64,000 nt of DNA from an uncultured Gemmatimonadales bacterium (GCA_963798915.1 CAWCVB010000007.1:143640-207639), one strand, 5' to 3'. Counted from the first letter of the stretch, positions 31,455 to 58,851 are shown. A program made the numbers and translations. Notes: a model not told the origin generated them from the letters alone.

Positions 31455-32744
31455 CTACGAGAACCGGCGGAACATGGCCTGGATACGGGCGATCAGCGCC
31501 GCATCCACGCCGGCCTCCCTTGCCTCCGGTTCCCAGCGTTCCAGCGATGCTTCCACCTCTTCGATGATGACGGCGCCGGCCTTCGGAACGTCGAACGCGC
31601 GGCCCACGGCCAGCAGGTCATCACGGGTGAAATCGTCGTCCTTGCCGCGGGCGGTCATCTGGTGGGTCATGGCCCACGCGCCGCCGTAGGCAAAGGTCAT
31701 GTCAAAGGCGGGTGCCAGCCGCCACGCCCCGTCCGGTCCCATCAGGAAGGCGACGTTCTTGACGTGGTCGTCCTGGTTGCGGGCCATGATGTTGAAGACC
31801 ATCCGGCGATACGCCTGGTCTACCGACGGCTGTCCCATGCCCAGCAGGCGAATGGTGCGGAAGTAATCTTCGTAGGAGAGAACCTGCCTGACATTGTAGT
31901 CGGCGTGCTGAAGCCCACCCAGGCTGTGCATGTGAAGCCGAGTTCCCTCCTCGCGATCAAAGCGCCGGGTCATGAAATGGGCAAAGTTGCGCTCGCGGAG
32001 CAGGAAGGTGTCGGTCATCTCGATACCGGCCGCACCGGCCATCCGCGAATAGGCAAACTCGATGCGCCCATAGGGACCGGGGTTGAATTCCCTGGCCAGC
32101 ACGTGGCCTCCTGCTCCAGCGGACACGCCATCGAACTTGATGAGCCAGTGCTCATCATCTTTTCCCCTGGGCGCAAAGGCCGACTTCACTCGCTTTGCCT
32201 CGCGGTTCCACAGCACCAGCGCCTTGGCTCGCGCACCACCCGCCGAGGCGCCCAGCTGCATCATTTCGGGCAGCGCCACGTCCGGGTCGCCCTCGATCAC
32301 GCGACGCGCCTCCTCGACCAGCTTCGCAATGGCCAGCGCCTCGCCGGTATCACGATTCATCCGTCCCTCGAGCGGCGGCCGGAACTCCAGCGCACCCATG
32401 GCGCGGCTGCCGATGTAGAGCAGCTTCTGCACCGGACTCATGGCCGCGCCCGGTGTGCCACGCTGCTCGAAGTAGCGCCGGATCACGGCATTGCCGAAGG
32501 CATCGGGAAGACTGTCGGCCAGGAGACCGGGCAGGCCGGCGAATGATTCGGTGCGCCGCAGCTCGGGAAAGGAGACGGGGCCACGACGCGACAGGGGCAG
32601 GTGGATGGGCGAGACTTCCAGTCCCGAGCGCCGGAAGTCCTCGCTATACTCGAACACGATTCCGCCCGTGGGATCCTCGGCGACCGCGCCAAGCTCCTGG
32701 CCCCAGAGCAGGATGCTGGCGACGGCAAAGGGTGACTCAGCCAT
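31455..32744 (-). CDS. hipA: HipA-family toxin kinase
   Basis: N-terminal couple domain (GLPGLLADSLPDAFG), SAGGARAK P-loop, IKFD, RRFDR, RNQDDHVKN, LAPAFDM. Confidence 0.95.
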   Translation of the reverse strand: MAESPFAVASILLWGQELGAVAEDPTGGIVFEYSEDFRRSGLEVSPIHLPLSRRGPVSFPELRRTESFAGLPGLLADSLPDAFGNAVIRRYFEQRGTPGAAMSPVQKLLYIGSRAMGALEFRPPLEGRMNRDTGEALAIAKLVEEARRVIEGDPDVALPEMMQLGASAGGARAKALVLWNREAKRVKSAFAPRGKDDEHWLIKFDGVSAGAGGHVLAREFNPGPYGRIEFAYSRMAGAAGIEMTDTFLLRERNFAHFMTRRFDREEGTRLHMHSLGGLQHADYNVRQVLSYEDYFRTIRLLGMGQPSVDQAYRRMVFNIMARNQDDHVKNVAFLMGPDGAWRLAPAFDMTFAYGGAWAMTHQMTARGKDDDFTRDDLLAVGRAFDVPKAGAVIIEEVEASLERWEPEAREAGVDAALIARIQAMFRRFS

Positions 32745-33087
32745 CGGGCGACGCGCGGCGAGGCGTCCCGGCGCGCTGACGCTGGCGCCCGCGCAGCTTC
32801 ACCAGCTGCATGGGAGAGACGAGCGGGGCAGGGAGGAACGCATCAAGCGCCTCCAGCCGGCCCAGGGCACGAAGAATCTGGATGACCGTGGCCAGGGTCG
32901 GATTCTCGCCGGCCTCAGCCCGGGCAAGGGTCCGGACACTGATGCCAGCGGCGGCGGCGACGTCAGCCGCGGTACGGTTCTGCTGCAGCCGGTAGCGTTC
33001 GAGCCGGTGGCCGATCTCGGCGAGCGCTTCACTGGTGGTGGCCGTGGTGTCCATCGTGCCATCCAAGGTTCGGTGTACAAGAGACAT
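32737..33087 (-). CDS. XRE-family HTH antitoxin (HipB-like)
   Basis: IGHRLERYRLQQNRT..VAAAAGISVRTLARAE; overlaps the hipA start. Confidence 0.88.
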   Translation of the reverse strand: MSLVHRTLDGTMDTTATTSEALAEIGHRLERYRLQQNRTAADVAAAAGISVRTLARAEAGENPTLATVIQILRALGRLEALDAFLPAPLVSPMQLVKLRGRQRQRAGTPRRASPDG

Positions 33088-40034: not shown

Positions 40035-40420
40035 TCACGGGCGCCGGGCCGGCGTCTGCCACAAAACCTCCCGCACCATCCAGACTTCTCCGTACTTCGC
40101 GAGCAGCAGGTAGTCCGTGCCCCATGAGGCCACGACCTTGGCGCTGGCCGTCTGATCCTGAACGTCAAAAACGGTCACCTCGCGCGGCGCATCGGGCGGG
40201 GCGAACATCCTGCGCTCCCTCACGCTTCTGGTGTAAGCGATCGCCTCGGACCACGACATGGCCTCGCCGAGGTAGCGTGTCGAGTCGGACGACCACCAGA
40301 ACCCGAATTTTTGCAGGTCGGGGCTGACGCTGCGGCGGAGCCGGTTCTCGTCGCCCTGATAGAAGCCCTCGACGTAATCCAGGACCGCCCGCCGCATCCC
40401 GCCTCCGCATTCGTCGGGTA
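40035..40420 (-). pseudogene. NTF2-like (lumazine-binding-2 type) gene with disrupted or missing 5' end
   Basis: RRAVLDYVEGFYQGD, DQTASAKVVASWGTDYLLLAKY..W...VLWQ; no in-frame signal peptide upstream. Confidence 0.65.
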
Positions 40421-40483
40421 GATGCACCGCCCGAGACGAGCGAGCCCGACCTCGGCACCGAGCGCGTTGCGGAATCGAGCCGT

Positions 40484-40538
40484 CGTCACTTGCCAAGTGA
40501 CGCCAGCGTGACAGCAGCGTCACGGGCGCCCGTATCCT
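40484..40538 (+). promoter_or_regulatory. Putative SARP/BTAD operator, copy 1, with candidate -10 (TATCCT)
   Basis: T[CG]AC cores at 40486, 40498, 40509 and 40520; 31/41 nt identical to 50009-50049; TATCCT 8 bp after the last repeat. Confidence 0.7.
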
Positions 40539-40575
40539 GCGCTGGGTAGCACGCCGCCGAGGAGGTCGAAGCAAG

Positions 40576-43500
40576 GTGACCCAATTCATGCACAGCAGGG
40601 CTATCCTCGCGACCGCGCTGATGGGCGCGCTCGTCGCCGCCGAAGGCTGCAATCGCACGTCAGGCGCGTCGGCGAGCGACCGAACGGCCATGGCGCTCGA
40701 GCAATGCGATCCGGCCCGCTACATCCCCTGCATTCCGCAGGTCGCCTTTCTTTCCGTCCCCCTTCATGATGCCGGTCTCTATCTCACCTACTCGAGCCAG
40801 TGGGCGCCCGGCGTGTCGGGCCATCGTCCGTGGGACGTCGGCTCGCTGGGACTCGGTGGCTGGTCCATCAATCCCATTCAGCGCTATGACACCGCCCAAC
40901 GGGTGCTCTTCAGCGGCGACGGGTCCTGGCGCATCGCGAGCAGCGTGCGACTTCCGTCGGATGAGCGAGTCGTTCCCAGCTACGACGGAGCACTCGCCTA
41001 CGTCTTCGATCCCGCTGGCCGCCATGTGCGCACCATGGACGGCCACCTCGGCACCGTGCTGCTTCACATCGAGTACGACGCTGTTGGCCGTCTGACCAGC
41101 ATCGACGGATCGCTCGACGGCGCTCCGGCGCACCTGTCGGTCCAGCGCGCACCCGACGGCACGGCGCGCGCCCTCGCGGGTACGGATGGCGGCACGACGT
41201 CGCTCACGATGGAGCCGCGTGGCCGGCTGACAGCAGTCACCAACCCCGCTGGCGCCACCACGCGTATCGACTGGGATGAGGGCGGACACGTCGTCTCGCA
41301 GACGGATCCGCTGGGCGGGGTTGCGCACTACAGCTACGATAACTCGGGACGAGTCGTCTCTTACGTCGACGCGGACAGCGTCGCGCAACGATTCGAGCGG
41401 CACGAATCGAGCAAGAGCCTCGAGATCCGTGTATCGACCACCCTCGGCCGACACTGGACGTATCGCGGGGAGCTTCTGGACGGCGCGATCCGCCGCACGT
41501 TCATCGATCGGGACGGTTCGATGAGCACCGAAACCGTCGACCCACGTGGCGCGCGTGTGATCAAGCTCGCCGACGGAACGAGCTACAGCGTCGGCGCGCT
41601 GGCGCATCCAGTCTGGAGCATGTCGGCGCCGATCTTGACACCCGTGGTGCAATCCCGCCCCGACGGAGTCACAGCCCGGCGCGAGGTGAAGTACGCGCTC
41701 CAGCCGCAGCGTGGTCTTCCCTACATGCTCGCGGGATCTGTCACCACCGTTATCAACGGTCGCGCGTGGAGGCAAGACTTCGATCCTCTCAGACGCACGG
41801 TAGTGCTGGTCGGCCCCGCCGGGCGTCGCACGCTCATCACGTACGATTCCGCAGGCCGTGTGCTGAGCCACTCGGCGCCAGGCAGACCGCCGGCGGCGTA
41901 TGCGTACGACGCCGCCGGGCGGATGGTGAGCGAGACCATCGGGGCGGGTCAACTCGCCCGCACCACCCGCTACGTCTACGACGCGAACACCGGCCGGATC
42001 ACTACCACCCTTCCCGACGGTGTCGTCGAGCACGCGACCGTCGACAAAGCTGGACATATGGTGCAGGCGTCCGCCGGAGACGGCTCGACGGCGATTGCAG
42101 CCTATGACGGTGGCGATCGGCTCATCCAGCTCCAACCCGCCGGAGGGGTGAGCTTCACCCTGGGCTCGAGCCCCGGCGGTCGGCCCACCGCGTTCGTGCC
42201 ACCTGTCGTGCCGGGTGATTCGTCCATTGAGTCGCGCTCCTACGATCCCGATGGACAACTGACGCGGATTGTCGGATCGGGTGGGCGCGCCGTGATGCTT
42301 TCGTACGATGACGCGGGACGGGTGAAGCGCTGGAGCTTCGATCAGGGCACGCGAACCATTTTCTACGACCCGCGAACCGGCGCGACAACTCGGGCCACGG
42401 ATCCGAGCGGCGTGACCACCACCTACGGTTACGCGGGCGACCTCGCCGATCGCCTGACCTGGTCCGGGCCAATTGCTGGTTCGGTCGGCGTCACACTCGA
42501 TGCGAACGGACGTCCCGCGGCCGAAGCGGTGAACGGGGCGGACACGCTGCGCTTCGCCTACGACGGATCGGGCTTGCTCACGAGGGTCGGACCGCTGACG
42601 CTTACGCGCGACTCCGCGAGTGGGCTGGTCACGGCGACGAAGCTCGGGGTGGTCGAGACCCGGCAGACATTCGACGCGAACGGATCGCTCATGCGCGCAA
42701 CGACGACCGTGCGTGGCGACGTGGTGTTCGAGCTGCGCTACACACGCGATGTGCTCGGACGAATCGCGAGCGTCAGTCAGACGACCGGCCACGGGAAGCC
42801 GTCGCGTACCGCCTACGCGTACGATGCGGCCGGTCGGTTATCTGCCGTTCGGGAGAACGGCCGACCGGCGGAGAGCGAGGGCTATGATCCGGCCGGGAAT
42901 CGTGTCGCGGTGAACCGCCCGAGCGCCACCTTAAAGGCCGCCTACGACGATCGCGATCGCGCGATGACGTGGGGCTCGCGTCACTACTCATGGTCGCCCG
43001 ACGGCAGCCTGACTCGGGTCATCGAGGATGCGAGCGCGACGTCGTTCACCTACGACGACTTCGGCGCGCTTCGCACGGCCACGCTTCCCGACGGGCGGGA
43101 GGTCAGCTATCTCGTTGATGCCGACGGGCGTCGTGTGGGCCGCCGGGTCGGGCGGAACATCGTCGCGGGATATCTCTATCGGCTGGATGGCTTCGTCGCC
43201 GCGGAAACAGATCCGAAAGGCAGGGTGGTCTCGCGATTCGGCTACGATGATCTGGGCCATCTCGCGCTGGTGGAGCGTGGCGGCATTGCGTACCGCGTGA
43301 TAACAGATGCGGTGGGGAGCCCACTCCTGGTCATCGATTCGCGGAATGGCAACATTGCCGAGGCGATGGCGTACAGCCCGTGGGGACGCATGATGCAGGA
43401 CACGGCGCCGGGGTTCACTCCGTTCGGGTTCGCGGGCGGATTGCGGGATCCGGACACCGACCTGCTCCGCATGGGAGCACGCGACTACGAGCCAGCGACG

Positions 43501-45789
43501 GGGCGCTGGACGGCGGCCGATCCCCTGCGATTCGCCGGCGGCGATGCGAACTTGTACCGCTATGCGGCGGGCGATCCGGTCAACCGAGTCGATCCACGCG
43601 GAATGTGTATTTCGCTGAAGGAGGTGGACATCGCCATAACTCGCGGCTTGGCGTCTCACTTACCGGAGATGAAGGGGGAAAACGACCTGTGTCCTGACGC
43701 AGCGATCGGCACACTCACGAATCCCGCGACGCCGCAGAACAACAATCCACCTCCACCTGGCGATCCGCCGGCGGCGGGGAACCCACCAGGGAACGGCAGT
43801 CCCTTCGATTGGGGATGCAAGGGAACTATATGCGTGGGTCCGGACGGTCTGGGCTGCGAGTTCGGAAGCTGTCACAAGAACCCGTTCGGATTCACCTGCG
43901 ACGCGGTGTATTGCCACGGGCCAGGCAATGAGTGGTGTTTCTACTGCTCCATGGGCGACCCTCATCTGCAAGCTGGAAACGGCGCTCGCTTCGACCTTCA
44001 GGCCGCCGGCGAATTCCTGATGGTGACCTCGCGCGATGGCGACCACGTCGTTCAGGCGCGGCAGGAGCCGTATGTCCAGGGAGCTCCGGTAACGGTCAAC
44101 AGCGCCGTCGCCGCCAATCTGAGCGGCGATCACGTGGGCGTCTACGCCACCGAACCTGATTTCCTGCTGGTGAATGGCGTACCCGTCCGGCAGCTCGATA
44201 TCGAGAGACGCTTGCCGCACGGCGACTCGATCGAGCGCCACGGTGGTCTTGTGATCCTCCGCTGGCGCGACGGCAGTCGACTGACCGTCAGCCGCGTCGT
44301 GAGAAGCTTGAATTACGCTTTCGTTCCCGGCCCGGGTGTCGGACCGCTGCGCGGCCTGCTTGGCGGAGCCGGCATCGACTCGCCGCACACGCTCACCAGC
44401 CGCGATGGCGCTGTCCTCCGACTCTCCGATCCCACCTTCGGGAAGAAGCTCTATCAGCAGGTCGGCAACAGCTGGCGGATCAGGCAATCCGAGTCGCTGT
44501 TCCACTACTGGCCCGGCGAAAGCACCGCGACCTTCACGAACGTGAGCTTCCCAGCCAAGCTGGTGACGGCCGCCTCGCTCTCCGCTGCGGTGCGGTCGAA
44601 GGCTGAAGCGATCTGTCGCGCCGTGGGCGTGCACACTCGGCCCGTGCTCGACGACTGCATTCTGGACGTCGGGATCACCGACCTGCCCGCCTTCGCCGCG
44701 GCATCGGTCGCCTTGGCGGCGAGCTTACCTCCGCGTCGCGCGCCGTCCGCCACCGCGTCGTCCTCGATCGCATCGCCCTCCAGCGCATTCGCCATCACGC
44801 TCGGCGATTCCGTATCTCCGAATCATCCAGCCAGGGGCGCGGGGATCATCTTGCATGCCGGGGAGAAGCAGTCGTATGCGTTTTCCGCCCCTGCGGGAAC
44901 GAGCATCTTCGTCGAGGTTGGGCCGTGTCAGGGCGCGACGCCCACATTCGAGGTGCTCGCACCGGACAGCACGCCGCTCGGCGGCACCTTCGGTTGCACC
45001 GGGTTCGGTCCGGTGCGCCTCTCCGCTGCCGGCGTTCATCGCATCGTCGTCGCCACCCTTGACACGGGAATGGTCCGCTACCGCCTTACCCTTCGCATCG
45101 CGCCGTTCGACCAGTACGCGATCCGCATCGGTGACACGGTCTCTCCCGACCATCCCGCTCCCGGTGCAGGCATCATCACCAGCCCCGGGCAGAAACAGTC
45201 CTATGCATTCGCCGGCGTGGCGGGCCAGGCCGTGTATGTGGGAGTCGGCCCGTGCGAGGGCGCCAACCCGAGCTTCGACCTCCGCGCGCCGGACGACAAA
45301 TTGCTCGGGGGCGTAATCGGCAACTGTCACGCCGATATCGGCCGGCAGGTCCTGCCCGTGACGGGCACATACCACATCGTCGCAAGCACGGTCAACAAGA
45401 CCGATGTCTCACGCTACAGCTTCTTTGTGCACACCGTTCCCGGCGATCAGCATTTCCCGGTGCGACTGCCGATCACCGTCTCTCTCGATGGTCCGGCTGC
45501 CGGATCCGGGCGCATGCGCACACAGGGGGTTCAGCAGTTCTACGACTTCAGCGCCAGCCCTGGGACGGTGGTCCATGTCGAGAGTCGCTGCAATCCGGCG
45601 TGCTCACATCTGGCGGTCCGGGTGACCCGAGCGGGCGACACTGGCGAAGGCCAGTTTCTCGATCTGAATTATCTCAGACACGATTGGACGTTGCCGCCGG
45701 GCGGCAACTACACGATCCAAGTGCGCTCGACCGGGTTCACTGGTACATACGGCTTCACGGCGTCGCCGGCTGTGACGCGGCGTCGCTGA
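40576..45789 (+). CDS. Secreted teneurin-like RHS/YD-repeat protein with Cys-rich, VWD (GDPH) and 3 PPC-like C-terminal domains
   Basis: Signal or lipoprotein-like N-terminus; many YDxxGR repeats; RHS core PFGFAGGLRDPDT...RDYEPATGRWTAADP...NLYRY...DPVNRVDPRG; GDPHL..G..FDLQAAGEF; three GAGI.....Q.Y.F repeats. Confidence 0.92.
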   Translation: MTQFMHSRAILATALMGALVAAEGCNRTSGASASDRTAMALEQCDPARYIPCIPQVAFLSVPLHDAGLYLTYSSQWAPGVSGHRPWDVGSLGLGGWSINPIQRYDTAQRVLFSGDGSWRIASSVRLPSDERVVPSYDGALAYVFDPAGRHVRTMDGHLGTVLLHIEYDAVGRLTSIDGSLDGAPAHLSVQRAPDGTARALAGTDGGTTSLTMEPRGRLTAVTNPAGATTRIDWDEGGHVVSQTDPLGGVAHYSYDNSGRVVSYVDADSVAQRFERHESSKSLEIRVSTTLGRHWTYRGELLDGAIRRTFIDRDGSMSTETVDPRGARVIKLADGTSYSVGALAHPVWSMSAPILTPVVQSRPDGVTARREVKYALQPQRGLPYMLAGSVTTVINGRAWRQDFDPLRRTVVLVGPAGRRTLITYDSAGRVLSHSAPGRPPAAYAYDAAGRMVSETIGAGQLARTTRYVYDANTGRITTTLPDGVVEHATVDKAGHMVQASAGDGSTAIAAYDGGDRLIQLQPAGGVSFTLGSSPGGRPTAFVPPVVPGDSSIESRSYDPDGQLTRIVGSGGRAVMLSYDDAGRVKRWSFDQGTRTIFYDPRTGATTRATDPSGVTTTYGYAGDLADRLTWSGPIAGSVGVTLDANGRPAAEAVNGADTLRFAYDGSGLLTRVGPLTLTRDSASGLVTATKLGVVETRQTFDANGSLMRATTTVRGDVVFELRYTRDVLGRIASVSQTTGHGKPSRTAYAYDAAGRLSAVRENGRPAESEGYDPAGNRVAVNRPSATLKAAYDDRDRAMTWGSRHYSWSPDGSLTRVIEDASATSFTYDDFGALRTATLPDGREVSYLVDADGRRVGRRVGRNIVAGYLYRLDGFVAAETDPKGRVVSRFGYDDLGHLALVERGGIAYRVITDAVGSPLLVIDSRNGNIAEAMAYSPWGRMMQDTAPGFTPFGFAGGLRDPDTDLLRMGARDYEPATGRWTAADPLRFAGGDANLYRYAAGDPVNRVDPRGMCISLKEVDIAITRGLASHLPEMKGENDLCPDAAIGTLTNPATPQNNNPPPPGDPPAAGNPPGNGSPFDWGCKGTICVGPDGLGCEFGSCHKNPFGFTCDAVYCHGPGNEWCFYCSMGDPHLQAGNGARFDLQAAGEFLMVTSRDGDHVVQARQEPYVQGAPVTVNSAVAANLSGDHVGVYATEPDFLLVNGVPVRQLDIERRLPHGDSIERHGGLVILRWRDGSRLTVSRVVRSLNYAFVPGPGVGPLRGLLGGAGIDSPHTLTSRDGAVLRLSDPTFGKKLYQQVGNSWRIRQSESLFHYWPGESTATFTNVSFPAKLVTAASLSAAVRSKAEAICRAVGVHTRPVLDDCILDVGITDLPAFAAASVALAASLPPRRAPSATASSSIASPSSAFAITLGDSVSPNHPARGAGIILHAGEKQSYAFSAPAGTSIFVEVGPCQGATPTFEVLAPDSTPLGGTFGCTGFGPVRLSAAGVHRIVVATLDTGMVRYRLTLRIAPFDQYAIRIGDTVSPDHPAPGAGIITSPGQKQSYAFAGVAGQAVYVGVGPCEGANPSFDLRAPDDKLLGGVIGNCHADIGRQVLPVTGTYHIVASTVNKTDVSRYSFFVHTVPGDQHFPVRLPITVSLDGPAAGSGRMRTQGVQQFYDFSASPGTVVHVESRCNPACSHLAVRVTRAGDTGEGQFLDLNYLRHDWTLPPGGNYTIQVRSTGFTGTYGFTASPAVTRRR

Positions 45790-45916
45790 CGCGTTCCACA
45801 GGGTTTCCCGCGCGCGCGAGCCGCAACCCGGAGTAAAACCCATGAGGTGGCCGATGCGGACAGAGTCAATTGCACTCCAACCAGGAGTTGCGTGCGCGGA
45901 CAGTGCCCTCCGATAT

Positions 45917-46990
45917 ATGCGCGGGCATCGCGGGCTGGCACTGGTGCTGCTTTGTCTCGTGGCGGCGGCATGCACGGGCAGGACACGAGACCGCGCCTCG
46001 GGGCAGGCCGTCGCGTTGCAAGGGAAAGGCGACGCGACACGTGACGACCCCTGCTCGCTGCTCGACGTGAGCGACGTTGCTGCGGCCATTGGCCCACTGG
46101 CGGGACCGCCGTATCGCGGCGACCCAAACCCCGATCCCTCGAGCGACGTGTGCCGATACGAGACAAATGATTACCGCCGCATTCAGCTCTCTGTGGATTG
46201 GACGGGCGGCGCGATGGCGATGAAGATGGTGGCCCTCGGCCGGCGCCTCGGGGACAAGGCGCTCCAGGCGGAGACACAGACTGGTATCGTTCTCAAGGCG
46301 GGCGATACGCTGCGCGGCGACTGGGATCAAATTGCCTTGTCGCCAGCCTCCTGCTGCTCACTCGACGCGCTCCGGGGCGACGCGGACGTGCAGCTCGACT
46401 GGACGGGGACGCGCCTGACCATCGCCGCCGCGGGCGCGCTGCTCAATTCGGCCATCAGGCGGCTGAACCATCGGCTGGCGATTGACGGCACGGCCGGCGA
46501 AGCAGCGGCGAAGCAGCGTTGGGCGGCAATGGCGCAAGACAGCGCGCTCGACGCATGCGGGCTCGTCTCCCAGCAGGACGCCGAGGCGATTATCGGAACC
46601 CCGCTCTCGGTGCCGCCGGACCATGGGTCGGCGCAAGAGGGCCCGCGCCGCACGTCCTGCTATTATCGCACGCCGATGCCGAACGCGCCGAACGCGGCAT
46701 TCGTGTACGAGATCGACCTGAAGGAGTGGAGCGATGCGCACGCGAAGTTCGCGGAGGACGAGTTCGTCATCAACGGCGCCGTGGGCGGGATCCGACGTCA
46801 GTGGTCGGGCGGCGACTCCACCACGCCCGCCGAGGCCCCCGAACCGCCGGGCCCCTGGGACGAGATCGGGTCCTCCGTGAGTGGGGGTTACCAGGCGGTC
46901 AAGGGCCCGCTGCTGCTGGCGGTGTCCACCAACGGAGATCATACCAGAGCACGGGCGCTTCTGGCCAAGGCAGTCAGCGCATTGCAATGA
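45917..46990 (+). CDS. Lipoprotein with two Cys-motif (DUF3558-like) domains
   Basis: LLCLVAAAC lipobox; DPCSLLDVSDVAAAIG..CRY and DACGLVSQQDAEAIIG..CYY. Confidence 0.75.
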   Translation: MRGHRGLALVLLCLVAAACTGRTRDRASGQAVALQGKGDATRDDPCSLLDVSDVAAAIGPLAGPPYRGDPNPDPSSDVCRYETNDYRRIQLSVDWTGGAMAMKMVALGRRLGDKALQAETQTGIVLKAGDTLRGDWDQIALSPASCCSLDALRGDADVQLDWTGTRLTIAAAGALLNSAIRRLNHRLAIDGTAGEAAAKQRWAAMAQDSALDACGLVSQQDAEAIIGTPLSVPPDHGSAQEGPRRTSCYYRTPMPNAPNAAFVYEIDLKEWSDAHAKFAEDEFVINGAVGGIRRQWSGGDSTTPAEAPEPPGPWDEIGSSVSGGYQAVKGPLLLAVSTNGDHTRARALLAKAVSALQ

Positions 46991-47001: not shown

Positions 47002-49950
47002 TTAGCCGCCTGTCCTACGTGCGCGGGCCTGCTTGAGCGCTGCGACGCGACGCTGGATTGCTTCGATGCGCGGGCGGAACTCGGGATCGGCCGAGCGCCA
47101 CGCGGAAAGGACGCGCTGGTAATGAACGAGCGCGCTGTCCGGCTCGGCGGCGCGCTCGAACGCCTCGCCAAGGACGGCGTGCAGATCGGTGTAGGTGAGA
47201 TAATAGTTCGACGCCTCGATCGGACCGCGCAGCGGCGCGCGGAGCACCGGAATGGCGTCACGCGGCCTTCCCTCGGCCAGGAGTGCCTTCCCCAACTCGA
47301 GATTCACCCGGCTGTATCCCTCGATCGGCGCAACGAATGCCCGGCGGAACTCTCGCTCCGCATCGGCTGTCCGACCCCGGGCTGCGACGAGGAGCCCGCG
47401 CACGTAGTGCTGAAGCACCTGGTCGCGGAAATACGCGCTGTGCGGAGCCCATGAGGCGAGGCTGTCGGCGAGCGCTCCCAATCGTGCCGTGTCTCCGGCC
47501 GCGGCGAGCGCTGTGGCTGCCTGTGTGGTCATCCAGATTTGATGGCGCGCGACGAGCCCCGGCGCGTCGGCGGTAAACGTCGGCGACGATCGCCATCTGT
47601 AATTGCCGATTGAGTCGAACAATGCTGCAGCTTCATGAAAGCGGCCCATCTCGAACATCACTTGCGCCACGGCAACGGCGTCGAGCGACCTGGGGGTGTT
47701 GAAGCTGGGTAGCTCGCCTTCGGTGGTTCGTACCATGCGCTCCGCGGTCGCGAGCGCATCGCGCAGGCGCCCCTGGTTCCGCAGACTGATCACGAGCCAC
47801 CACAGCGCTTCGCCGCGCTTGGCCGGGTTCCCGTTCTGTGCCCGATCCGCCAGCATCCGATCCGCGACGGCGAACTCCCCCGAGCGGACGGCGATCAGGA
47901 CGCGGGGCATCACCGCATCGTATCCGCTGGGAGCGACGCGTTCGGCGCGTTGCTCCGCGGTGAGCGCGCTATCGTACCGTTCCTCCCGCCCGAGTATCGA
48001 TGTCAATGCCCACCATGCCGCCACCGCGTTGGGTTGCATGCGCGTCCAATCGCGCGCCGTTCGTTCAGCGGCTGCCACGGAATCCGCGGACAGGTACGTC
48101 GCGAGGAGCATGTACAGGGCGTCGCACGCGCGGCACCAGGGACTGCGGCCGATGAGGCTCAGCGAATCCAGGCGAACCGCACGACGGAGATGTGGCAGCG
48201 CGCCGAGAAAATCGCCGCTCCAGGATCTTGCGCGACCGAGCGCCAGTTCGCTGCCCGGCTCGTCCGGGTACCGCGTGACGAGTGATTCCGCGATGGCGAG
48301 TTGCGCCGGATCATTCGTGGTGTAAGCCCACGTCTGCCGAATGATCACGCGTTCACGATCGGACACTCGGTCGGCGAGGCGGAGGGCGAGCGCGAGATCG
48401 CGGCGCGAGGCGGGTCCGTCGTTCGCGACCTCGCCAAGCCCGGCGTAGTAGGCGGTCATCGCGAAGCTCGAATCCTCGGCGAGGGCCGCATGAAAGAGAT
48501 GGACGGCGGCCTGCACGTCGCTCTGATAGAACCGGCGGAGCCCTTCCTCGTACAGGCGCCGCGCGGCCAGCGATGTCGTCGTGACGCCGGCCAGCGGTTG
48601 CACCGGCGCGCGGAGACCGAACTCGGCCGCCACCTGCGCCGTGGCGCGATCCGCGAGCTCGAACACCGTGCTCGCGTCGAACGAATGGGTCCGACCCGCC
48701 GCGCCCGTGGCGAGTTGGACATGGCGCAGTTCGAGCCGGAGTGTATGATCGGGAGCGCGAGAGAGCACGGCCTCGAGGAGCTCGTCGGCACCGGCACGCC
48801 GCGCGGCGTCCGAGATTGCCGACGGCGTCTCCTCGCGCACGCCAAGCTGGCCCAGCAAGTCATAGATCCTGGCATGGCTCACGACGCGCAGCCCGGGAAC
48901 GCGCGCCAGATCGGTCGCCAGCAAATCGGCGAACGTCCGCACGCTCGACCCCGTATCCGCGCCGCTTGGATCCTGAATCCATCCGACCGCCACCACGGGC
49001 GACGAGGGCCTGCCGTGGGTCCACGTTGCCACCGCCGCGATCATGAGTGTGGCCGCGATGATCGCTCCCGCCACGTACGAGCCGCGACGCAACCACGCGC
49101 GTCGCGATGCTCCGTGCGTCGCGAGCTCCGGTCCGTCGGGCAAAGCCTCGGGTGACACCGCGGGCCCGGCAGTGTCTTCCCCTCTGGCAGTGCTTGCCGA
49201 TGAGGGCGCAGCCGCGGGTGATGTGGACGCTCGCTTCCTCACCGCCTCGAGCATCGATCGCGTTTCCGCCGAGGGCTCGACGTCGAACTCCGCTTTGAGT
49301 CGGTGCGCGAACTCCGTGTACACGCGCAGTGCGCCGTACCGGTCGCCTTGAGTGTCCAAAACTGCCACCAGGCGACGGAGCAATTGCTCGTCGTCCGGAG
49401 CGAGTTGGCTGGCGTAGCGCATCCAGTGCGCCACCTCGCTCGCGCGACCTCGGCGCTCGTTCGCGTCGGCGAGCTTCGTTGCCGCGTCAATCGCCCGATG
49501 CAAGAGTTCCGCACGCGTCGTATCGATCCAGTGGTCAAATTCCGGCGCCACGTCGGTGATGTGGAATCCGGGGAGGAATCCGCCCCGGTATAGCACCAGT
49601 GCGTCCTCGAATCGACTCTGGTCGAGCAACTCCCTGAACGCGCACACGTCGCACCGGAGGGCGTCAAGGGCGAGCCCGATCTCTTCTCCCCCGCGATTGA
49701 CGACAACGTGCTCGCCTATCGAGCGGCGTAAAAAGTAGAGCGACTGCCGCAGTGCCTGACGTGCCTGCGCCTGGCTGAACTCTGGCCAGAAGAGCGCGAA
49801 CAACTGGTCGCGGCGCTGAAAGCCGCGCGCGGATTCCACCGCGAGATAGCTCAGCAGCGCCAGTCGTTTCGGCTGGGCGAGCACGGGTCGCAGCTCGCGG
49901 CCGTCGGTTCCCCGCAGCGCGAGCGTGCCCAACATGTCGAGGTGAATCAT
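47002..49950 (-). CDS. Membrane-anchored SARP/BTAD transcriptional regulator with TolB-N-like and TPR extracytoplasmic region
   Basis: QPKRLALLSYLA, RDQLFALFWPE, ALRQSLYFLRR, CDVCAF, LYRGGFLPG, EPSAET; TM helix YVAGAIIAATLMIAAVATW; TTSLAARRLYEEG and TPR-like helices. Confidence 0.9.
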   Translation of the reverse strand: MIHLDMLGTLALRGTDGRELRPVLAQPKRLALLSYLAVESARGFQRRDQLFALFWPEFSQAQARQALRQSLYFLRRSIGEHVVVNRGGEEIGLALDALRCDVCAFRELLDQSRFEDALVLYRGGFLPGFHITDVAPEFDHWIDTTRAELLHRAIDAATKLADANERRGRASEVAHWMRYASQLAPDDEQLLRRLVAVLDTQGDRYGALRVYTEFAHRLKAEFDVEPSAETRSMLEAVRKRASTSPAAAPSSASTARGEDTAGPAVSPEALPDGPELATHGASRRAWLRRGSYVAGAIIAATLMIAAVATWTHGRPSSPVVAVGWIQDPSGADTGSSVRTFADLLATDLARVPGLRVVSHARIYDLLGQLGVREETPSAISDAARRAGADELLEAVLSRAPDHTLRLELRHVQLATGAAGRTHSFDASTVFELADRATAQVAAEFGLRAPVQPLAGVTTTSLAARRLYEEGLRRFYQSDVQAAVHLFHAALAEDSSFAMTAYYAGLGEVANDGPASRRDLALALRLADRVSDRERVIIRQTWAYTTNDPAQLAIAESLVTRYPDEPGSELALGRARSWSGDFLGALPHLRRAVRLDSLSLIGRSPWCRACDALYMLLATYLSADSVAAAERTARDWTRMQPNAVAAWWALTSILGREERYDSALTAEQRAERVAPSGYDAVMPRVLIAVRSGEFAVADRMLADRAQNGNPAKRGEALWWLVISLRNQGRLRDALATAERMVRTTEGELPSFNTPRSLDAVAVAQVMFEMGRFHEAAALFDSIGNYRWRSSPTFTADAPGLVARHQIWMTTQAATALAAAGDTARLGALADSLASWAPHSAYFRDQVLQHYVRGLLVAARGRTADAEREFRRAFVAPIEGYSRVNLELGKALLAEGRPRDAIPVLRAPLRGPIEASNYYLTYTDLHAVLGEAFERAAEPDSALVHYQRVLSAWRSADPEFRPRIEAIQRRVAALKQARARRTGG

Positions 49951-50008
49951 GAGGACTCTCTTACGGACGGCCACTCTCGTCCTGGCGCCCAATGTTACGT
50001 TCGCGGCC

Positions 50009-50064: not shown

Positions 50065-50220
50065 GACGGGATTGTTCCCTGACGGCGCCAGCGCCGCCGA
50101 ATGCCTGCCAGGTTGACATGGCGATCCCGGCCCGGCCATCCTGTCGAGAGCCCCCGAAACGGCGCTTGGATCTCCCTGGTCCTTCTTCCTCACCCTCACC
50201 CATCACCCGGCGGAGTCCCA

Positions 50221-50709
50221 ATGAATGCGCTACGACGCAGTGCCCTATCGCTCTCAGCTTCCCTCGCCCTATGCGCCACCGCAGCGGCCCAGGCTCCCGC
50301 CGGTGACGCGTGCAGCCTCCTCACCACCGACGAAGTCGGTGCGGTCCTCGGCGTCAAGGTATCGCGGCAACCAGTTGCCAGCAGCAAGACATCCTGCACC
50401 TTCACTCCGGGCAGCGATCACAGCCTGGCAGCCCGCATGGTCACGGTCACGCTGACGCCGCTGAAGGTGTTCGAAGCCACGAAGCAGTCGTACCGTGAGA
50501 TGACGCCGGAGCCCGCGAGCGGCATCGGCGACGAGGCCCATTATCAGAAACTGGCGACAAAGCATCTGAAGGCCATTTCCCTGTATGTTCGGAAGGGCGC
50601 CGGAGCATTCGTGCTGCGGGTCAACCCCGGACGTGCCGGCAAGGAAACCGACGCGCAAGTAGAAGCGATGGAGAAGACCCTGGGGCAACAAGCCGCCGCG
50701 CGGCTCTAG
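50221..50709 (+). CDS. Secreted Cys-motif (DUF3558-like) protein
   Basis: Signal peptide ending AAAQA; DACSLLTTDEVGAVLG...SCTF...SGIGDEAHY; GGAG RBS. Confidence 0.75.
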   Translation: MNALRRSALSLSASLALCATAAAQAPAGDACSLLTTDEVGAVLGVKVSRQPVASSKTSCTFTPGSDHSLAARMVTVTLTPLKVFEATKQSYREMTPEPASGIGDEAHYQKLATKHLKAISLYVRKGAGAFVLRVNPGRAGKETDAQVEAMEKTLGQQAAARL

Positions 50710-54028: not shown

Positions 54029-54409
54029 ATGGCCACCTCCGATGCAGATGAAGGAGCCGATACGCTTGCCGCGGTCGAGCGCTTCAATGCTGCGTTCAAT
54101 CGCCATGATGTGGACGCCATCATGGCGGCGATGACCGATGACTGCATCTTCGAGAGCACTCGGCCGGTGCCGGATGGCGAACGCCTCGAAGGACAGGCGC
54201 GCGTACGCGCGTTCTGGGAAGAGTTCTTCCGACGATCGCCCGAGGCACAGTTCGAAACAGAGGAAGTTTTCGCGGCCGGGAATCGCTGTGTGGTGCGGTG
54301 GATCTATCGTTGGGTGAGGGACGGCGTTGCGGGACGGGTCCGGGGAGTGGACCTGTTCCGGGTCCGAGAGGGAAGAGTGGCCGAGAAGCTTTCCTATGTG
54401 AAAGGCTGA
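54029..54409 (+). CDS. SnoaL-like / NTF2 family protein
   Basis: VERFNAAFNRHDVDAIM..MTDDCIFE, RGVDLFRVREGRVAEKLSYVKG; AGGAG RBS. Confidence 0.9.
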   Translation: MATSDADEGADTLAAVERFNAAFNRHDVDAIMAAMTDDCIFESTRPVPDGERLEGQARVRAFWEEFFRRSPEAQFETEEVFAAGNRCVVRWIYRWVRDGVAGRVRGVDLFRVREGRVAEKLSYVKG

Positions 54410-54536
54410 AGACGGACGCCTGTCTCGGGCGACTCGACGCAGGCGCCTGACAGCATCCCTTCGCTCCAGCGGGGGGCCATCGCAGCCGCGAGGGCGGCGC
54501 CCGCCATGCATGAGGCGGCCTAACGGGGAGATCGAC

Positions 54537-55031
54537 ATGGAGCCTGAGAGCGTTCTTGCCGTCATCGCGGGAGTTGCGTCGACGTTCATAGGCTTCACGG
54601 GCGTCATCTTTGCCGTCGGCCGTTCCTCGCGCGATGGTTGGAGCGCAGCGGAGCGTACGGCGCTCCTCAACCTGTTGATACCCTCGGTGGTCGTGCTCTT
54701 TCTCGCATTCATCCCGATTGTGGCCTCCACGGGTATCCACTCTCAGGCGCTGATCTGGCGTGGCGCCAATGCATGCCTGGCTGTCATTCATTTGGCGCTC
54801 GTCACCACCGCGTTGCGAGCGGCCTGGAAGTCGACACTCCTCGAGCCGGTGCCGCTCCGCTTGTTCCTGATCCCCGGCGGCTACGCCAGTGGCATCATCA
54901 GCGCGGTTGTTGCCCTTGGTCACTGGCCGCAGTTCGCCGTGATGGCATTCGTGGCCGGCCTGGTATGGAGTCTTCTTGTGGCCGCCGTCCAATTTGTGAT
55001 GCTGATCGTTCCCCGTCCCGTCGCCGCCTGA
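54537..55031 (+). CDS. Hypothetical membrane protein (~5 TM)
   Basis: IAGVASTFIGFTGVI, hydrophobic throughout; GGAG RBS. Confidence 0.7.
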   Translation: MEPESVLAVIAGVASTFIGFTGVIFAVGRSSRDGWSAAERTALLNLLIPSVVVLFLAFIPIVASTGIHSQALIWRGANACLAVIHLALVTTALRAAWKSTLLEPVPLRLFLIPGGYASGIISAVVALGHWPQFAVMAFVAGLVWSLLVAAVQFVMLIVPRPVAA

Positions 55032-55106
55032 GCCACGCCGTGCTGCCCGCTCACCATCACGCAATGACAATCGCGCGGATCTGCCGCGTGAGGAGAGGAG
55101 CCAGAG

Positions 55107-55637
55107 ATGGCCAGGCTCGTGTTCGGGATGAACCAGTCCCTGGATGGCTACGTCGACCATACGGCGTTTGCGCCAGGCCCAACGCTCTTCCGCCACTTCA
55201 TCGAGCAGGTTCAGGGACTCGCGGGCAGTGTGTACGGTCGCCAGATGTACGAAGTCATGCGGTACTGGGATGACGACCATCCTGAATGGAGCGCGGACGA
55301 GCAGGCCTTTGCGGCGGCGTGGCGGAAGCAGCCGAAATGGGTCGTCTCCCGCTCGTTGACGTCCGTCGGTCCCAACGCGACGCTTGTTGCGGATGATCTC
55401 GAGGGCGCGATCCGTGAGCTGAAGGCCGAGCGCGACGGGGAGATCGAGGTTGCCGGCCCGGTGCTGGCGCAGAGTCTCACCGACCTTGGCCTGATCGACG
55501 AGTATCGGATCTACCTCCACCCGGTGGTGCTTGGTCACGGCAACCCCTATTTCGCGGGGCCCCGGCCGCCGCTCCGCCTTCTGGCATATGACCGGATGGA
55601 CGAGGATGTGCTCAGGCTCGTCTATGTTCCTGCCTAG
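55107..55637 (+). CDS. Dihydrofolate reductase family (RibD C-terminal) protein
   Basis: MNQSLDGYV, YGRQMYE, PKWVVSRSL, GLIDEYRIYLHPVVLGHG.PYF. Confidence 0.92.
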   Translation: MARLVFGMNQSLDGYVDHTAFAPGPTLFRHFIEQVQGLAGSVYGRQMYEVMRYWDDDHPEWSADEQAFAAAWRKQPKWVVSRSLTSVGPNATLVADDLEGAIRELKAERDGEIEVAGPVLAQSLTDLGLIDEYRIYLHPVVLGHGNPYFAGPRPPLRLLAYDRMDEDVLRLVYVPA

Positions 55638-55973
55638 ACTGCGGTGAGGAATGCGGGGTTCGGGTGTTCGCCAGCTCCGCGCGCCGTCGCCCTGTATGTT
55701 GCCGGATCCGTTAGCCGGATCCGTTAGGTCGAGTACTGGTTCGAGCCGACGGATGTCGATTGAGACGAGCTCACGCAAGCCCATGGCAGTACCGTACTGA
55801 CGACGGACCTTTTCGAACTCCGCAAGAGCGCCTTCGCGTGTGAGCGCAGTATAGAGACAGGCGTATTCGCCGAGGCGGTTCCATCGCCCGTGGGAGTACT
55901 TCCAGATCTTGCCGAGGTGGAGGGGAGCCGCGCCTGCAGGGATGTGTCGCCAGACGCGGCCGGCGAACAGCAT
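55634..55973 (-). pseudogene. RES-domain toxin, frameshifted by a 13-bp tandem duplication and truncated
   Basis: GRWNR, CLYTAL, ALAE, VLDLTDP; (gccggatccgtta)x2 at 55701-55726; even the corrected frame stops at 55634, before the conserved C-terminal Ser region. Confidence 0.8.
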
Positions 55974-56531: not shown

Positions 56532-58669
56532 ATGCCCCACCCCACTCGGTTCACCCGCTCCTCCCTGCTCCTGACCCTTGCCATGGCGACAGGCGCCGCG
56601 GGCCTCGCCGCCCAGGCACCGGCGCCGGCGCTCGCCGCCCGTGTCACCATCTATCGCGACAGCTTCGGGATTCCCCACGTCTTCGGCGAGACCGATGCCG
56701 CCACCACCTTCGGCTTTGGCTATGCCCAGGCGGAGGACGGCTTCCCTCGGCTCGAGGACAACTACATCCGCGCGCTGGGCCGGCGGTCTGAAGTGGAGGG
56801 CGAGGCGGGGTTCACCGATGACTGGCTCAACCGGCTGCTCCGGATCCCGGCGCTGGCCCGAGCCGAGTATGGCCGGATGGCGCCGCATGAGCGGGAGCTG
56901 GTGGACGGCTTTGCGGCGGGCATCAACTACTGGATAGCTCGACATCCGGAGACGAATCCGCGGCTGCTTCATCACATTGAGCCGTGGTATCCGCTGGCCT
57001 TCATCCGCTACCTCTATTTCCAGCAGGGATTCGTCTTCAGTGCCGGGCTCCGGCGCGACGAACTCGCCGGCGCCTCCCACGACAGCACCTTCTCCGCCCA
57101 GACCGGCTCCAACGGCTTTGTGATCGGGCCGTCCAGGAGCGCCACCGGTCACGCCATGCTGGTGATCAATCCGCACCTGTCCTACTTCGGGCCGGGACAG
57201 GTCTACGAGGGCCACGTTCACAGCGCCAGCGGCTGGAACTTCACCGGCTACACCCGGTTCGGTTTCCCCATGCCCTACGTGGGGCACAGCGAGGCCATCG
57301 GCTGGGTCAGCACCGACAACGCTGCGGACCTGGCCGATCTCTGGGCCGAGACCTTTGACGATCCCAATGATCCGCTGGCGTATCGCTACGGCGATGGTCA
57401 CCGCCGCGCCGTACAGTGGACCGACACCGTGCTGGTGCTGGGCGACAGCGGCATGGCGCGGCGCGTGGTAACACTCAGGCGCACCCATCATGGTCCGCTG
57501 GTCGCTGTTCGTGACGGCCATCCACTGGCGCTCGGCATGGCGCACCTGGGCGATGACGGCTGGCTGGGGGAGTGGTATGCCATGACGCGGGCGCGGACGA
57601 TGGCCCAGCTCAGGCAGGCGATGCGGCCGCTGGCGATGCTCTTCGGAAATGTGATGGGTGCCGACACTGCGGGGCACATCTGGTACCTCTATAATGGTGC
57701 GGTGCCCCGCCGCGACCCGCGCTTCGACTGGCAGCAGCCGGTGGATGGCAGCGACCCCGCCACCGAATGGCGCGGCTATCACGGCATTGACGAACTGCCG
57801 GAACTCCTGGACCCGGCGTCGGGGTGGATGCAGAACAACAACACCACCCCGTTCCTGCTCACTGATCGCGGCAACCCCGATTCAGCGGCCTTCGCGCCCT
57901 ACATGGTCACCGAGGGCGACAACATGCGGGGCGCCGCCGTCAGGCACCTCCTGGCCGGCCACCCGCGCTTCACCTGGGAGGAGTGGGTTCATGCCGCGTT
58001 CGACACCCGGGTGCAGTTTGCCGATTCACTCCTGCCGGGGCTGCTCGCATCAGTGCGGCGGGCGGGTGGCGGCTCCGCCGAGCGTACCGAAGCGCTGCGC
58101 CTGCTCGAGCAGTGGGACCATCGCACCGATACCAACTCGGTGGCCGTGACACTGCTGTCGCGCATGGGGAAATCGGCTGGGGAGATTGCCGGAGGATCGG
58201 CAGAGCGATCCTACTGTGATGGCGGCCGAGCTCGACTCCACCCTGGCGGCACTTCAGAACGGGACTGGGGCACCTGGCAGGTGCCCTGGGGCCGAATCAA
58301 CCGCCTCCAGCGGATTGACGATCTCGAACCATCCGCAGGTTTTCGGGATGACCGAGCGAGCGTAGCGGTGCCTGGCGTGCCCGGCTGGCTGGGGCGCGGT
58401 GTTCACCATCTATGCACGCCTCGGCCGACGGCCAGCGGAGCAGCTATGGCGTCGCCGGCGGCACCTATGTTAGTGCGGTGGAGTTCGGGCCCACGGTCAG
58501 GGCGGTGGCGGTGCATGTGTTCGGGGCGTCGGACAATCCCTCTTCGCCGCACTACTTCGACCAGGCGCCGCTCTTTGCGCGGGGCGAGATGCGGCCGTCC
58601 TGGCTTGCGCTGGACGAGATCCGCGCGCACCTACAGCGGGCGTATAATCCGGGGGAGGAGGGGCGGTAG
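56532..58669 (+). CDS. Penicillin acylase family (S45 Ntn hydrolase), secreted; frameshifts in the 3' part
   Basis: Signal peptide; RDSFGIPHV, GYAQAED, GSNGFVIGPSRS (beta-chain Ser), INPH, HHGP; C-terminus YVSAVEFG..HYFDQA in another frame. Confidence 0.9.
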
Positions 58670-58851
58670 GGAGCGTCTTGCACAGGCCTAGGCGCGATGT
58701 GATGCATTTCACCCTCGCCGCCAATACTGTTCCACTTCCGATCTCTTGAGCAAGCGCTTTGAGCCTGAATGCCTCGACTCGCGTCGCGGCGGGGTCAGCT
58801 ATCTCACCACCCTTCTAGTTCATCGTCGATTGCGAGCGACCCAGAGGGCCG

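Follow-up and report, generated by a model that had tools for sequence, protein, structure and literature searches.

What does an RHS protein do when the polypeptide that follows its shell is too large for that shell and contains no recognizable toxin? The question is raised by a single open reading frame (ORF) on the plus strand, at positions 40576-45789, of a 64,000-nucleotide stretch of DNA from an uncultured Gemmatimonadales bacterium (GCA_963798915.1 CAWCVB010000007.1:143640-207639; this whole stretch is referred to as the window). The accepted view of RHS/YD shells is that they cage small toxins, and the size of the cavity has been argued to limit C-terminal domains (CTDs) to about 15 kDa (PMC13018210). 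The 1737-amino acid (aa) translation of the ORF, designated P0001, is an RHS protein with a YD shell, an autoprotease core and a long tail in which a VWD domain, a C8-like module and three beta-sandwich repeats are found. On balance, we favour the reading that it is a bacterial lipoprotein with a teneurin-like topology, its YD shell being joined to an external VWD-C8-PPC3 binding module. The parts of the protein, each with the evidence on which it is based, are as follows.

40588-40650, plus strand: probable initiation codon (ATG, aa 5), then a signal peptide that ends in a lipobox-like AEGC (C25); translation
40705-43518, plus strand: YD/RHS shell, aa ~44-981; Pfam, AlphaFold2 and Foldseek
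43372-43605, plus strand: RHS-associated core with autoprotease residues; TIGR03696 and alignment with the bacterial teneurin-like protein BiTLP
43606-43737, plus strand: post-core segment, aa 1011-1054, 4.6 kDa, with C1011 and C1039; AlphaFold2 and family comparison
43738-43809, plus strand: Pro/Asn/Gly-rich low-complexity tether, aa 1055-1078; sequence
43810-43953, plus strand: Cys-hairpin module, aa 1079-1126, directly abutting the VWD; sequence and AlphaFold2
43954-43965, plus strand: GDPH, aa 1127-1130, in the first strand of the VWD, with D1128-P1129 as a potential autocleavage bond; script
43954-44421, plus strand: VWD domain, aa 1127-~1282; Pfam matches of relatives, family profile, AlphaFold2 and Foldseek
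44437-44721, plus strand: helical C8-like module, aa 1288-1382; profile alignment, AlphaFold2 and Foldseek
44722-44781, plus strand: Ser/Ala/Pro linker, aa 1383-1402; sequence, and a predicted local distance difference test score (pLDDT) <50 at tail residues 375-391
44782-45768, plus strand: three tandem beta-sandwich repeats, aa 1403-1508, 1511-1620 and 1625-1731; statistics, AlphaFold2 and Foldseek

An initial annotation of this DNA had pointed to a DPRG motif, a Pro/Asn linker, an eight-Cys segment, GDPH, a Cys pair at a CILD motif, a Ser/Ala linker and three repeat starts, and a script found every one of these in place. Identifying the domains of the tail needed relatives and profiles, because direct family scans gave nothing significant. 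Pfam and NCBIfam matched no family in the 728-aa tail at E<=1, a sequence search of the PDB returned nothing significant, and the VWD segment of the window protein scores 13.2 bits against PF00094 (E=0.12; profile positions 5-140 of 156), below the cut-off of 22.9. A profile-free search of 1.84 billion representatives with the tail returned 3931 proteins at E<=1e-3 and 592 at E<=1e-30. Pfam was run on 24 of the best 150 relatives; 15 match PF00094 in the region of tail residues ~119-385, 12 have RHS/YD-shell domains upstream of the tail and 6 match PPC (PF04151) in the repeat region. In a 35-row tail alignment, A1, VWD is matched in 21 rows (E<=0.01), RGM_C, which adds RGM to the proteins for comparison, in 7, PPC in 6 and C8-3_MUC4 in 2; the query matches none. 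One relative, P0087, aligns with the window protein at E=4.5e-51 across its Pfam VWD region, and a family profile searched against the PDB found FCGBP (E=4e-26) together with VWF, MUC2, MUC5B and MUC5AC.

The AlphaFold2 model of the tail, built on A1, has a mean pLDDT of 81. Numbered by tail residue, it is disordered at 1-66, forms beta-hairpins at 67-117, a beta-sandwich at 118-275 and helices at 279-373, and continues with a disordered linker at 375-391 and three confident beta-sandwiches at 394-722. For the VWD, the pLDDT is about 85-97. In Foldseek, the VWD and C8 block matched MUC2 D3 (6rbf_B) at E=2.4e-8, with a target-normalized TM-score (TMt) of 0.50 and a root-mean-square deviation of 4.4 over 282 columns; the D assemblies of MUC2, MUC5AC, VWF (D'D3) and FCGBP were matched with a Foldseek probability of 1.00, and MUC5B was matched too, over 280-320 columns. 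The helical module, with ...PVLDDCILDVG, has two Cys only, C1347 and C1361, both in ...CRAVGVHTRPVLDDCILD. Both are invariant in alignment A2, and in the profile alignment pLLddCiLDVGvTg is paired with pFLDDCVFDLCVTG, at the start of C8 in FCGBP. These results support the identification of the domain after GDPH, where the initial annotation had seen a VWD-like domain, as a VWD with a reduced C8-like module. As in animal D assemblies, VWD is followed by C8, GDPH is located at the first strand and a Cys is positioned three residues before it. The window protein differs from these assemblies in having two Cys in all in VWD plus C8, both in the C8-like part, no TIL or E modules, a Cx4C repeat before the VWD and a bacterial host. 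Because VWD and C8 contain only two Cys, an inter-fragment disulfide of the FCGBP type is not evident.

Beyond a Ser/Ala-rich linker, placed by the script at about aa 1375-1404, the three repeats start in frame at 44788, 45115 and 45454 (aa 1405, 1514 and 1627). Each contains two Cys. Repeats 1 and 2 are identical at 52 of 108 positions (z=41, 200 shuffles), and the comparisons of repeat 3 with repeats 1 and 2 give z=9.4 and z=8.2, respectively. The models have a pLDDT mostly of 85-97 and, in Foldseek, match the tandem collagen-binding domain of ColG (5iku, E=2.6e-7) and, about equally, the CUB proteins cubilin, neuropilin and PCPE-1. The window protein's own repeats have no Pfam match to PF04151 at E<=10. 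With the PF04151 matches of the relatives, the models support an assignment of the repeats, already described as beta-sandwiches in the initial annotation, as PPC/collagen-binding/CUB-type beta-sandwiches. Like s3a-s3b of ColG (PPC/CBD), they are tandem C-terminal beta-sandwiches on a secreted protein; unlike ColG, the window protein has no protease domain and its repeats fall below Pfam PPC. Searches of the tail with Pfam, NCBIfam, the PDB, profiles and Foldseek identified neither a toxin family nor a toxin-like fold, in agreement with the earlier view that no toxin is recognizable there.

The tail had been regarded initially as an atypical cargo of one protein, and it proved instead to characterize a conserved family. 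In a near-length search, 51 of 59 proteins, the window protein included, were RHS proteins of 1321-2007 aa with a VWD tail, annotated, where named, as 'RHS repeat-associated' or hypothetical only. Named near-length relatives are from Acidoferrales, Terriglobales, Limnocylindrales and gammaproteobacterial metagenome-assembled genomes (MAGs). When one genome per GTDB species was scanned, 48 loci were found, with the tail on an RHS-type ORF in 27. Eight of the remaining loci are cut by contig ends, several are frame-shifted and the rest have the VWD module in non-RHS proteins, for example in Nitrosovibrio, cyanobacteria and Myxococcales. In non-RHS proteins, the VWD-PPC module accompanies fn3, Big, PKD, DUF11, TSP3 and filamin-type extracellular domains. 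The RHS-VWD proteins are from Acidobacteriota, Chloroflexota, Dormibacterota, Gemmatimonadota, Saccharimonadales and one gammaproteobacterial MAG. In several loci from long-read MAGs (L003, L017, L030, L037, L038, L039 and L045), the RHS-VWD gene is broken up into ORFs that overlap and differ in frame, as exemplified by L003 with the RHS part at 6453-10064 and the tail at 9710-11812. Such splits are probably assembly frame errors and not genuine.

Core and tail have diverged together. The window protein is 30-62% identical to its relatives in the core and 32-57% in the tail, and over 1128 pairs the identities of core and tail (means of 53.6% and 46.4%) are correlated with r=0.82. Because of this co-divergence, the tail is the opposite of a swapped toxin tip, and the possibility that it is a swapped polymorphic tip was rejected. 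The Rhs proteins of type VI secretion systems (T6SS), TcB-TcC of the Tc toxins and WapA share with this family the RHS repeats, the associated core, the protease triad and an abrupt loss of similarity past the cut. In the RHS-VWD family, however, similarity resumes past the variable segment, in the co-diverging tail, and there is no toxin domain. The tail has a mass of 76.2 kDa after M1010, the predicted site of cleavage, and a volume of about 92,000 Å3 (at 1.21 Å3/Da). The cavity of BiTLP, a closed shell that encloses a 92-aa CTD, is about 44,000 Å3 (PMC13018210). Since the tail has approximately twice this volume, its VWD-PPC part would have to lie outside the shell, consistent with the earlier suggestion that the VWD and repeats are too large to be encapsulated.

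The shell is readily identified by Pfam in the window protein (RHS_repeat PF05593, 1.4e-40; TEN_YD-shell PF25023, 8e-23) and opens with a family-conserved plug region, LExCDPxxYIxC (C44 and C52). A model of aa 25-1130, which includes the shell, linker and hairpins, has a predicted TM-score (pTM) of 0.81, with a shell pLDDT mostly of 85-95. The best Foldseek match of the shell model is a bacterial teneurin-like protein (TLP), 9ifo_A (E=9e-70, query-normalized TM-score (TMq) 0.74). Teneurins are matched with a TMq of 0.66-0.77, T6SS Rhs proteins with 0.44-0.60 and Tc BC components with 0.32-0.42, so that the classical RHS toxins are the weaker fold match (0.32-0.60); the PAAR, VgrG or TcA context of those toxins is also missing from the window. 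TIGR03696, the RHS-associated core, covers aa 933-1010 (74.7 bits, cut-off 32.5) and directly precedes the tail. The autoprotease residues are R969 (43480-43482), D982 (43519-43521) and D1006 (43591-43593), the last being the first residue of DPRG (aa 1006-1009, nt 43591-43602). BiTLP (PDB 9ifo/9pt5; Raoelijaona et al., Nat Commun 2026, PMC13018210) is the known protein closest to the window protein both in core-end sequence and in shell fold. The core end aligns with it at E=9e-28, with R969, D982, D1006 and M1010 on R2103, D2116, D2140 and L2144, respectively. Residues R969, D982, D1006 and G1009 are invariant in 49 of 49 family sequences, with P1007 kept in only 27. Because BiTLP is cleaved after L2144 of DPSGL (PMC13018210), the RHS cut is predicted, by analogy, between M1010 and C1011 (43605/43606) and not after G1009. 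This would generate a tail of 727 aa and, up to GDPH, a 118-aa fragment, C1011-D1128. The fragment length in the initial annotation is thereby retained, its cut after DPRG and tail of ~728 aa being replaced.

TLPs and the window protein share the R/D/D autoprotease, a DPxG(L/M) site and a Sec/signal peptidase II (SPII) lipoprotein signal, and both are without a dedicated secretion system and have a gene directly downstream. The CTDs of TLPs are, however, ~15 kDa, polymorphic, toxic and fully enclosed, whereas that of the window protein is 76 kDa, conserved and composed of binding-type domains. Pfam detected no NHL propeller or other N-terminal domain in the window protein, and only ~20 residues separate the lipobox Cys from the first conserved shell/plug motif. 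Because there is no detectable NHL or other N-terminal domain, the window protein is not a TLP in the strict sense.

The GTG at 40576 is the stop-to-stop start of the ORF and overlaps the end of a lumazine-binding ORF on the opposite strand (40035-40691, minus strand). Because of the overlap with this convergent ORF, translation more likely starts from the ATG at 40588. From this ATG, the N-terminus is MHSRAILATALMGALVAAEGC, with Cys25 in a lipobox-like position. The Glu at position -2 of AEGC is unusual. A regex scan found a lipobox-like motif within the first 60 aa of 38 of 57 relatives, and several of the others are N-terminally truncated records. The regex missed P0001 itself, the AEGC of which was identified by eye. 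Downstream of the lipobox, the motif LALEECDPAGYIxC is conserved across relatives. Judged from its sequence, the window protein is probably a Sec/SPII lipoprotein. The signal peptide and lipobox are the only export features recognized, as the 44 window ORFs scanned include no T6SS, VgrG, PAAR, TcA or type VII secretion system genes. The number of Cys, counted by script, is even in every module of the protein, in keeping with export, and all modules could therefore pair their Cys internally.

The region between the RHS core and the VWD is the hypervariable part of the family. In 66 close pairs (cores >=65% identical), the mean identity is 69.6% for the core, 31.9% for the inter-domain segment and 62.0% for the tail. 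The cores of P0174 and P0180 are 91% identical and their inter-domain segments are unrelated. Family-wide, this segment has 65-253 aa (median 125) and 0-14 Cys. In the window protein, the post-core segment, aa 1011-1054, is plausibly the only part able to stay inside the shell; it is modelled with a pLDDT <50, with or without the shell, and gains no structure inside it. The Pro/Asn-rich stretch (aa 1049-1076 by script) has counterparts in most relatives, in that the inter-domain segments of 56 of 62 family members include a 20-aa window with >=70% P/G/N/S/Q/T, and the tether is disordered both in the model of the tail alone and in that of the shell, linker and hairpins. Next are three Cx4C-x-GP-x-G units (C1081, C1094 and C1108) and a closing CxxC, with the eight Cys at aa 1081, 1086, 1094, 1099, 1108, 1113, 1121 and 1124 (WGCKGTIC...WCFYC). 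The number of Cx4C units per linker is 0-5, with none in 20 of 62 family linkers and at least two in 32 of 49 tree rows. AlphaFold2 models them as beta-hairpins, with a pLDDT of 55-73 when the VWD is in the model and 32-46 when it is not. Because the number of units varies, the module abuts the VWD and confidence increases with the VWD present, the Cys-hairpin module looks like a rigid structural stalk, with the Pro/Asn stretch as a tether, rather than a released toxin. It has no Pfam family, and a search of the ESM Atlas for look-alikes of aa 1010-1128 gave no usable match.

Two further proposals for Cys of the inter-domain segment were rejected. The module is not a general N-terminal part of bacterial VWDs, as Cx4C-GPxG is present upstream of the VWD in 0 of 24 non-RHS VWD proteins inspected. 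A disulfide-loop 'stopper' after the cut site, defined as a Cys <=6 residues from the cut plus a second Cys ahead of the hairpin region, is not a family feature, as the pattern is present in only 23 of 62 proteins. In some relatives (P0161, P0166, P0004, P0179, P0180, P0032 and P0040, very distant ones included), the hairpins are replaced by a Cys-poor domain of ~130 aa with the motif GLNLQYIQG...NPS..P..DW.G.T, followed by a long poly-Gly; Pfam found nothing in this region of P0004 and P0032. Other post-core variants are a PRFPDPW type and glycine-zipper-like hydrophobic stretches (P0164, P0182/3 and P0035). Two causes could account for this hypervariability: a linker under relaxed constraint, or a small cargo in the cage that is diversified by conflict.

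The position of GDPH is also variable. The 49 family members have GDPH (16), TDPH (1), GEPH (16), GDTH (15) or GDIH (1), so that H is invariant, G is present in 48 and Asp-Pro in 17, with at least 17 changes of state along the core tree. Because only 17 of 49 have Asp-Pro, cleavage at this bond is not an essential step for the family. By this comparison the bond appears dispensable, though available in the window protein. According to PMC8267560, Asp-Pro cleavage at GDPH is known from MUC2, MUC5AC, FCGBP and ITIH3, and the formation of a reactive Asp anhydride is established for animal VWDs and ITIH3.

These features would be accommodated as follows in a lipoprotein with teneurin-like topology. 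A shell with an intact-looking aspartyl autoprotease would be followed by the post-core segment, the tether, the Cx4C stalk and the conserved 64-kDa VWD-C8-PPC3 module. The chain would leave the shell as in metazoan teneurins, in which an uncleaved C-terminus is led out through a shell opening and serves extracellular recognition (PMC13018210). The displayed VWD-PPC module would then bind a matrix polymer, the cell envelope or a neighbouring cell, so that the tail would serve in binding rather than in killing. If the RHS cut after M1010 occurs, only the first ~45-65 residues of the tail, enclosed by the shell, would hold it in place, and cleavage of the Asp-Pro bond in GDPH would be an optional, lineage-specific extra. 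Metazoan teneurins resemble the window protein in having the YD-shell fold and a large C-terminal region that cannot fit inside the shell. They differ in being uncleaved and without the protease motif, in having ABD and Tox-GHH rather than VWD and PPC as outside domains, and in being type II membrane proteins with EGF and NHL domains.

Several points weigh against this reading. Cleavage, localization and the binding partner are, for the window protein, predicted only. The shell of BiTLP, the closest with a solved structure, is without an opening (PMC13018210), and in the AlphaFold2 models aa 983-1078 are without confident structure, with or without the shell. The modelling that the initial annotation had recommended for locating the chain exit thus provided a shell, but not the exit, with pLDDT <50 from aa 983. 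An invariant triad and a hypervariable segment past the cut are hallmarks of toxin-delivering RHS proteins, and a lipoprotein gene recurs next to RHS-VWD genes, as expected of an immunity gene. The Pfam scan for VWD and PPC, also recommended initially, is positive for relatives, but for the window protein itself the VWD match is sub-threshold and a PPC match is absent.

The initial annotation had offered a different explanation, that two autocleavages, at M1010 as now placed and at D1128-P1129, free the 118-aa, 12-kDa disulfide-rich peptide as the true cargo or effector, with the VWD-PPC part as an external anchor, possibly covalent via an Asp anhydride. Both motifs are present in the window protein, the RHS triad is intact and invariant, and GDPH chemistry has the animal precedents noted above. 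With 12.2 kDa and about 14,800 Å3, the fragment fits the 44,000 Å3 cavity and is close to the TLP CTD average of about 15 kDa (PMC13018210), and it is the segment between the two sites that is hypervariable. The second cleavage, however, is available only to the 17 of 49 members with Asp-Pro at a position of repeated state changes. The number of Cx4C units (0-5, none in 20 of 62 linkers) is as expected of a spacer, and the hairpins abut the VWD without a linker, with higher model confidence when the VWD is present. Low-complexity Pro/Asn/Gly sequence makes up about half of the 118 aa, the fragment has no toxin family or look-alike and the cleaved fragments of the FCGBP VWD stay together (PMC8267560). 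The intact protease speaks for the first cleavage, and the scarcity of Asp-Pro and the stalk-like Cys module against release by a second; we consider double-cleavage release unlikely.

A further reading, to which we give a low probability, is a new kind of self-processing delivery device with an internal, rather than terminal, polymorphic cassette and an external VWD-PPC 'handle'. The autoprotease would cut after M1010, and the hypervariable segment of 60-250 aa would stay caged, tied via the tether to the handle. Binding of the handle to a target would then lead to extraction or release of the caged segment, by pulling or, in some lineages, by cleavage of the Asp-Pro bond in GDPH. If correct, this would answer how surface YD shells that are without a secretion machine release their content, a process not understood for TLPs (PMC13018210), and would provide a bacterial precedent for the outside-shell C-terminus of teneurins and for GDPH-type VWD domains.

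The genes next to the RHS-VWD gene in the window are as follows.

45842-46990, plus strand: lipoprotein gene P0002, directly downstream, with two DUF3558-like halves and a probable start at ATG 45917; hidden Markov model (HMM) and relatives
47002-49992, minus strand: large BTAD+TPR (SARP-like) regulator gene between the two DUF3558-like genes; Pfam BTAD 4e-16 and TPRs
50101-50709, plus strand: second DUF3558-like lipoprotein gene; HMM E=5.5e-40, Pfam DUF3558 0.0053

The P0002 gene is located 52 nt past the RHS stop and no terminator-like site was seen between them. P0002 matches the DUF3558-like HMM built here at E=1e-7, and 58 of the 101 P0002 relatives listed carry a precomputed PF12079; the seven that have a taxon name are all from Gemmatimonadaceae/Gemmatimonadales MAGs, which makes a member of the Gemmatimonadaceae the probable source of the window. 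It is possible that P0002 is a partner or immunity-like protein. A complex prediction with tail residues 66-728 (aa 1075-1737) and P0002 residues 60-382 returned 'no answer', with a score of 0.00, and counts neither way. Among the window ORFs, that at 50101-50709 is the best homologue of the genes found immediately beside RHS-VWD genes in other genomes. In tblastn it has matches in L005 and L013 that directly adjoin the RHS-VWD genes, and tblastn against the 48 loci gave no match for P0002, the BTAD regulator, the lumazine-binding ORF, the glyoxalase or the M1 peptidase. DUF3558-like flanking genes are present in L005 (5631-6104, 5 nt downstream), L013 (6181-6666), L015 (5971-6609, 20 nt upstream), L038 (5932-6597, 52 nt) and L022 (11341-11949, 126 nt), and the flanking genes in the fragmented loci L017, L030 and L039 are probably DUF3558-like counterparts too. 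These genes have the motif DPCxLLTxxEA..LG after the lipobox, are located upstream or downstream of the RHS-VWD gene and are found in Gemmatimonadota, Acidobacteriota, Chloroflexota and a gammaproteobacterial MAG, in the flanks of 10 of the 48 loci. This association is suggestive only. An enrichment of DUF3558 genes next to secreted ESX-4 substrates has been reported for M. abscessus (PMC13491425).

In a conflict system, the caged post-core segment would be an envelope-acting toxin, the VWD-PPC part its targeting domain and the DUF3558-type lipoprotein the immunity protein. Hypervariability directly past an invariant cut site, as in P0174 and P0180, would be expected, and the glycine-zipper-like segments of P0164, P0182/3 and P0035 are consistent with the small membrane-active peptide that constitutes the CTD of BiTLP (PMC13018210). 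The presence of DUF3558-like lipoprotein genes directly beside RHS-VWD genes in several phyla, and of DUF3558 genes beside ESX-4 substrates, also argues for such a system. In the window protein, however, the 44-aa segment is ordinary in composition, with a Pro-rich stretch and no hydrophobic or enzymatic feature, and disordered linkers evolve fast without conflict. The DUF3558-like genes are in only 10 of 48 flanks, at positions that are not fixed, and DUF3558 has no known function. A conflict system is therefore improbable on the present evidence. A purely structural or matrix protein, in which VWD-C8 multimerizes and cross-links shell lipoproteins into a surface layer or biofilm and the shell has no delivery role, is very unlikely: the fold does match the D assemblies of polymer-forming mucins and VWF, OmpA-family envelope proteins adjoin acidobacterial RHS-VWD genes and stalk repeats of variable copy number are typical of surface-layer spacers, but the Cys for D3 intermolecular disulfides are missing, with two Cys in VWD plus C8, and an invariant protease triad would be unnecessary.

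Gene context differs between lineages. A different STAND-like regulator, with the organization AAA_16-TPR-GerE, is encoded upstream of the RHS-VWD genes in 13 Chloroflexia, Dormibacterota and related loci, as in L015 (2814-5612, plus strand), and a small SCO4226-like protein comes next in these loci. In the Acidobacteriota loci L001-L009, the RHS-VWD genes are flanked by genes for conserved OmpA-family proteins with CarboxypepD_reg and zinc-ribbon domains, and also have as neighbours duplicated ~240-aa proteins and a 456-aa protein without a Pfam family, a context unlike that in the window. Elsewhere in the window, a HipA-like kinase (HipA_C plus Couple_hipA; 31455-32744, minus strand) has a small ORF directly upstream (32737-33087, minus strand), and this pair is a possible HipBA toxin-antitoxin. 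A 617-aa ORF (54120-55973, minus strand) has a weak RES-domain match. From 58000 to 64000, the G+C content decreases from about 0.66 to 0.55-0.60 and the genes include two ORFs without a Pfam family (58852-60081 and 60231-61637) and one encoding a Macro-domain protein (61721-62803, minus strand); this region is possibly an acquired island.

Searches of the openly accessible literature yielded no account of RHS-VWD proteins or bacterial GDPH-type VWDs, and the TLP paper (PMC13018210) with 11 of its 12 supplementary files contains no mention of VWD or von Willebrand. The exception is a myxobacterial protein which, in the lipocone paper, is called 'the first bacterial example' of vWD (10.1101/2025.01.14.632903). 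What is new here is therefore an RHS/teneurin-type shell protein whose adhesion-type tail is conserved and cannot be encapsulated, as a recurring design in soil bacteria. If the tail is truly outside the shell, the teneurin topology would have its first bacterial counterpart in the window protein and its family. VWD domains of the GDPH type, which have hardly been noted in bacteria so far, are placed in an abundant prokaryotic context; this bears on how the adhesion and mucin domains of animals originated and on how cage proteins find and act on their targets.

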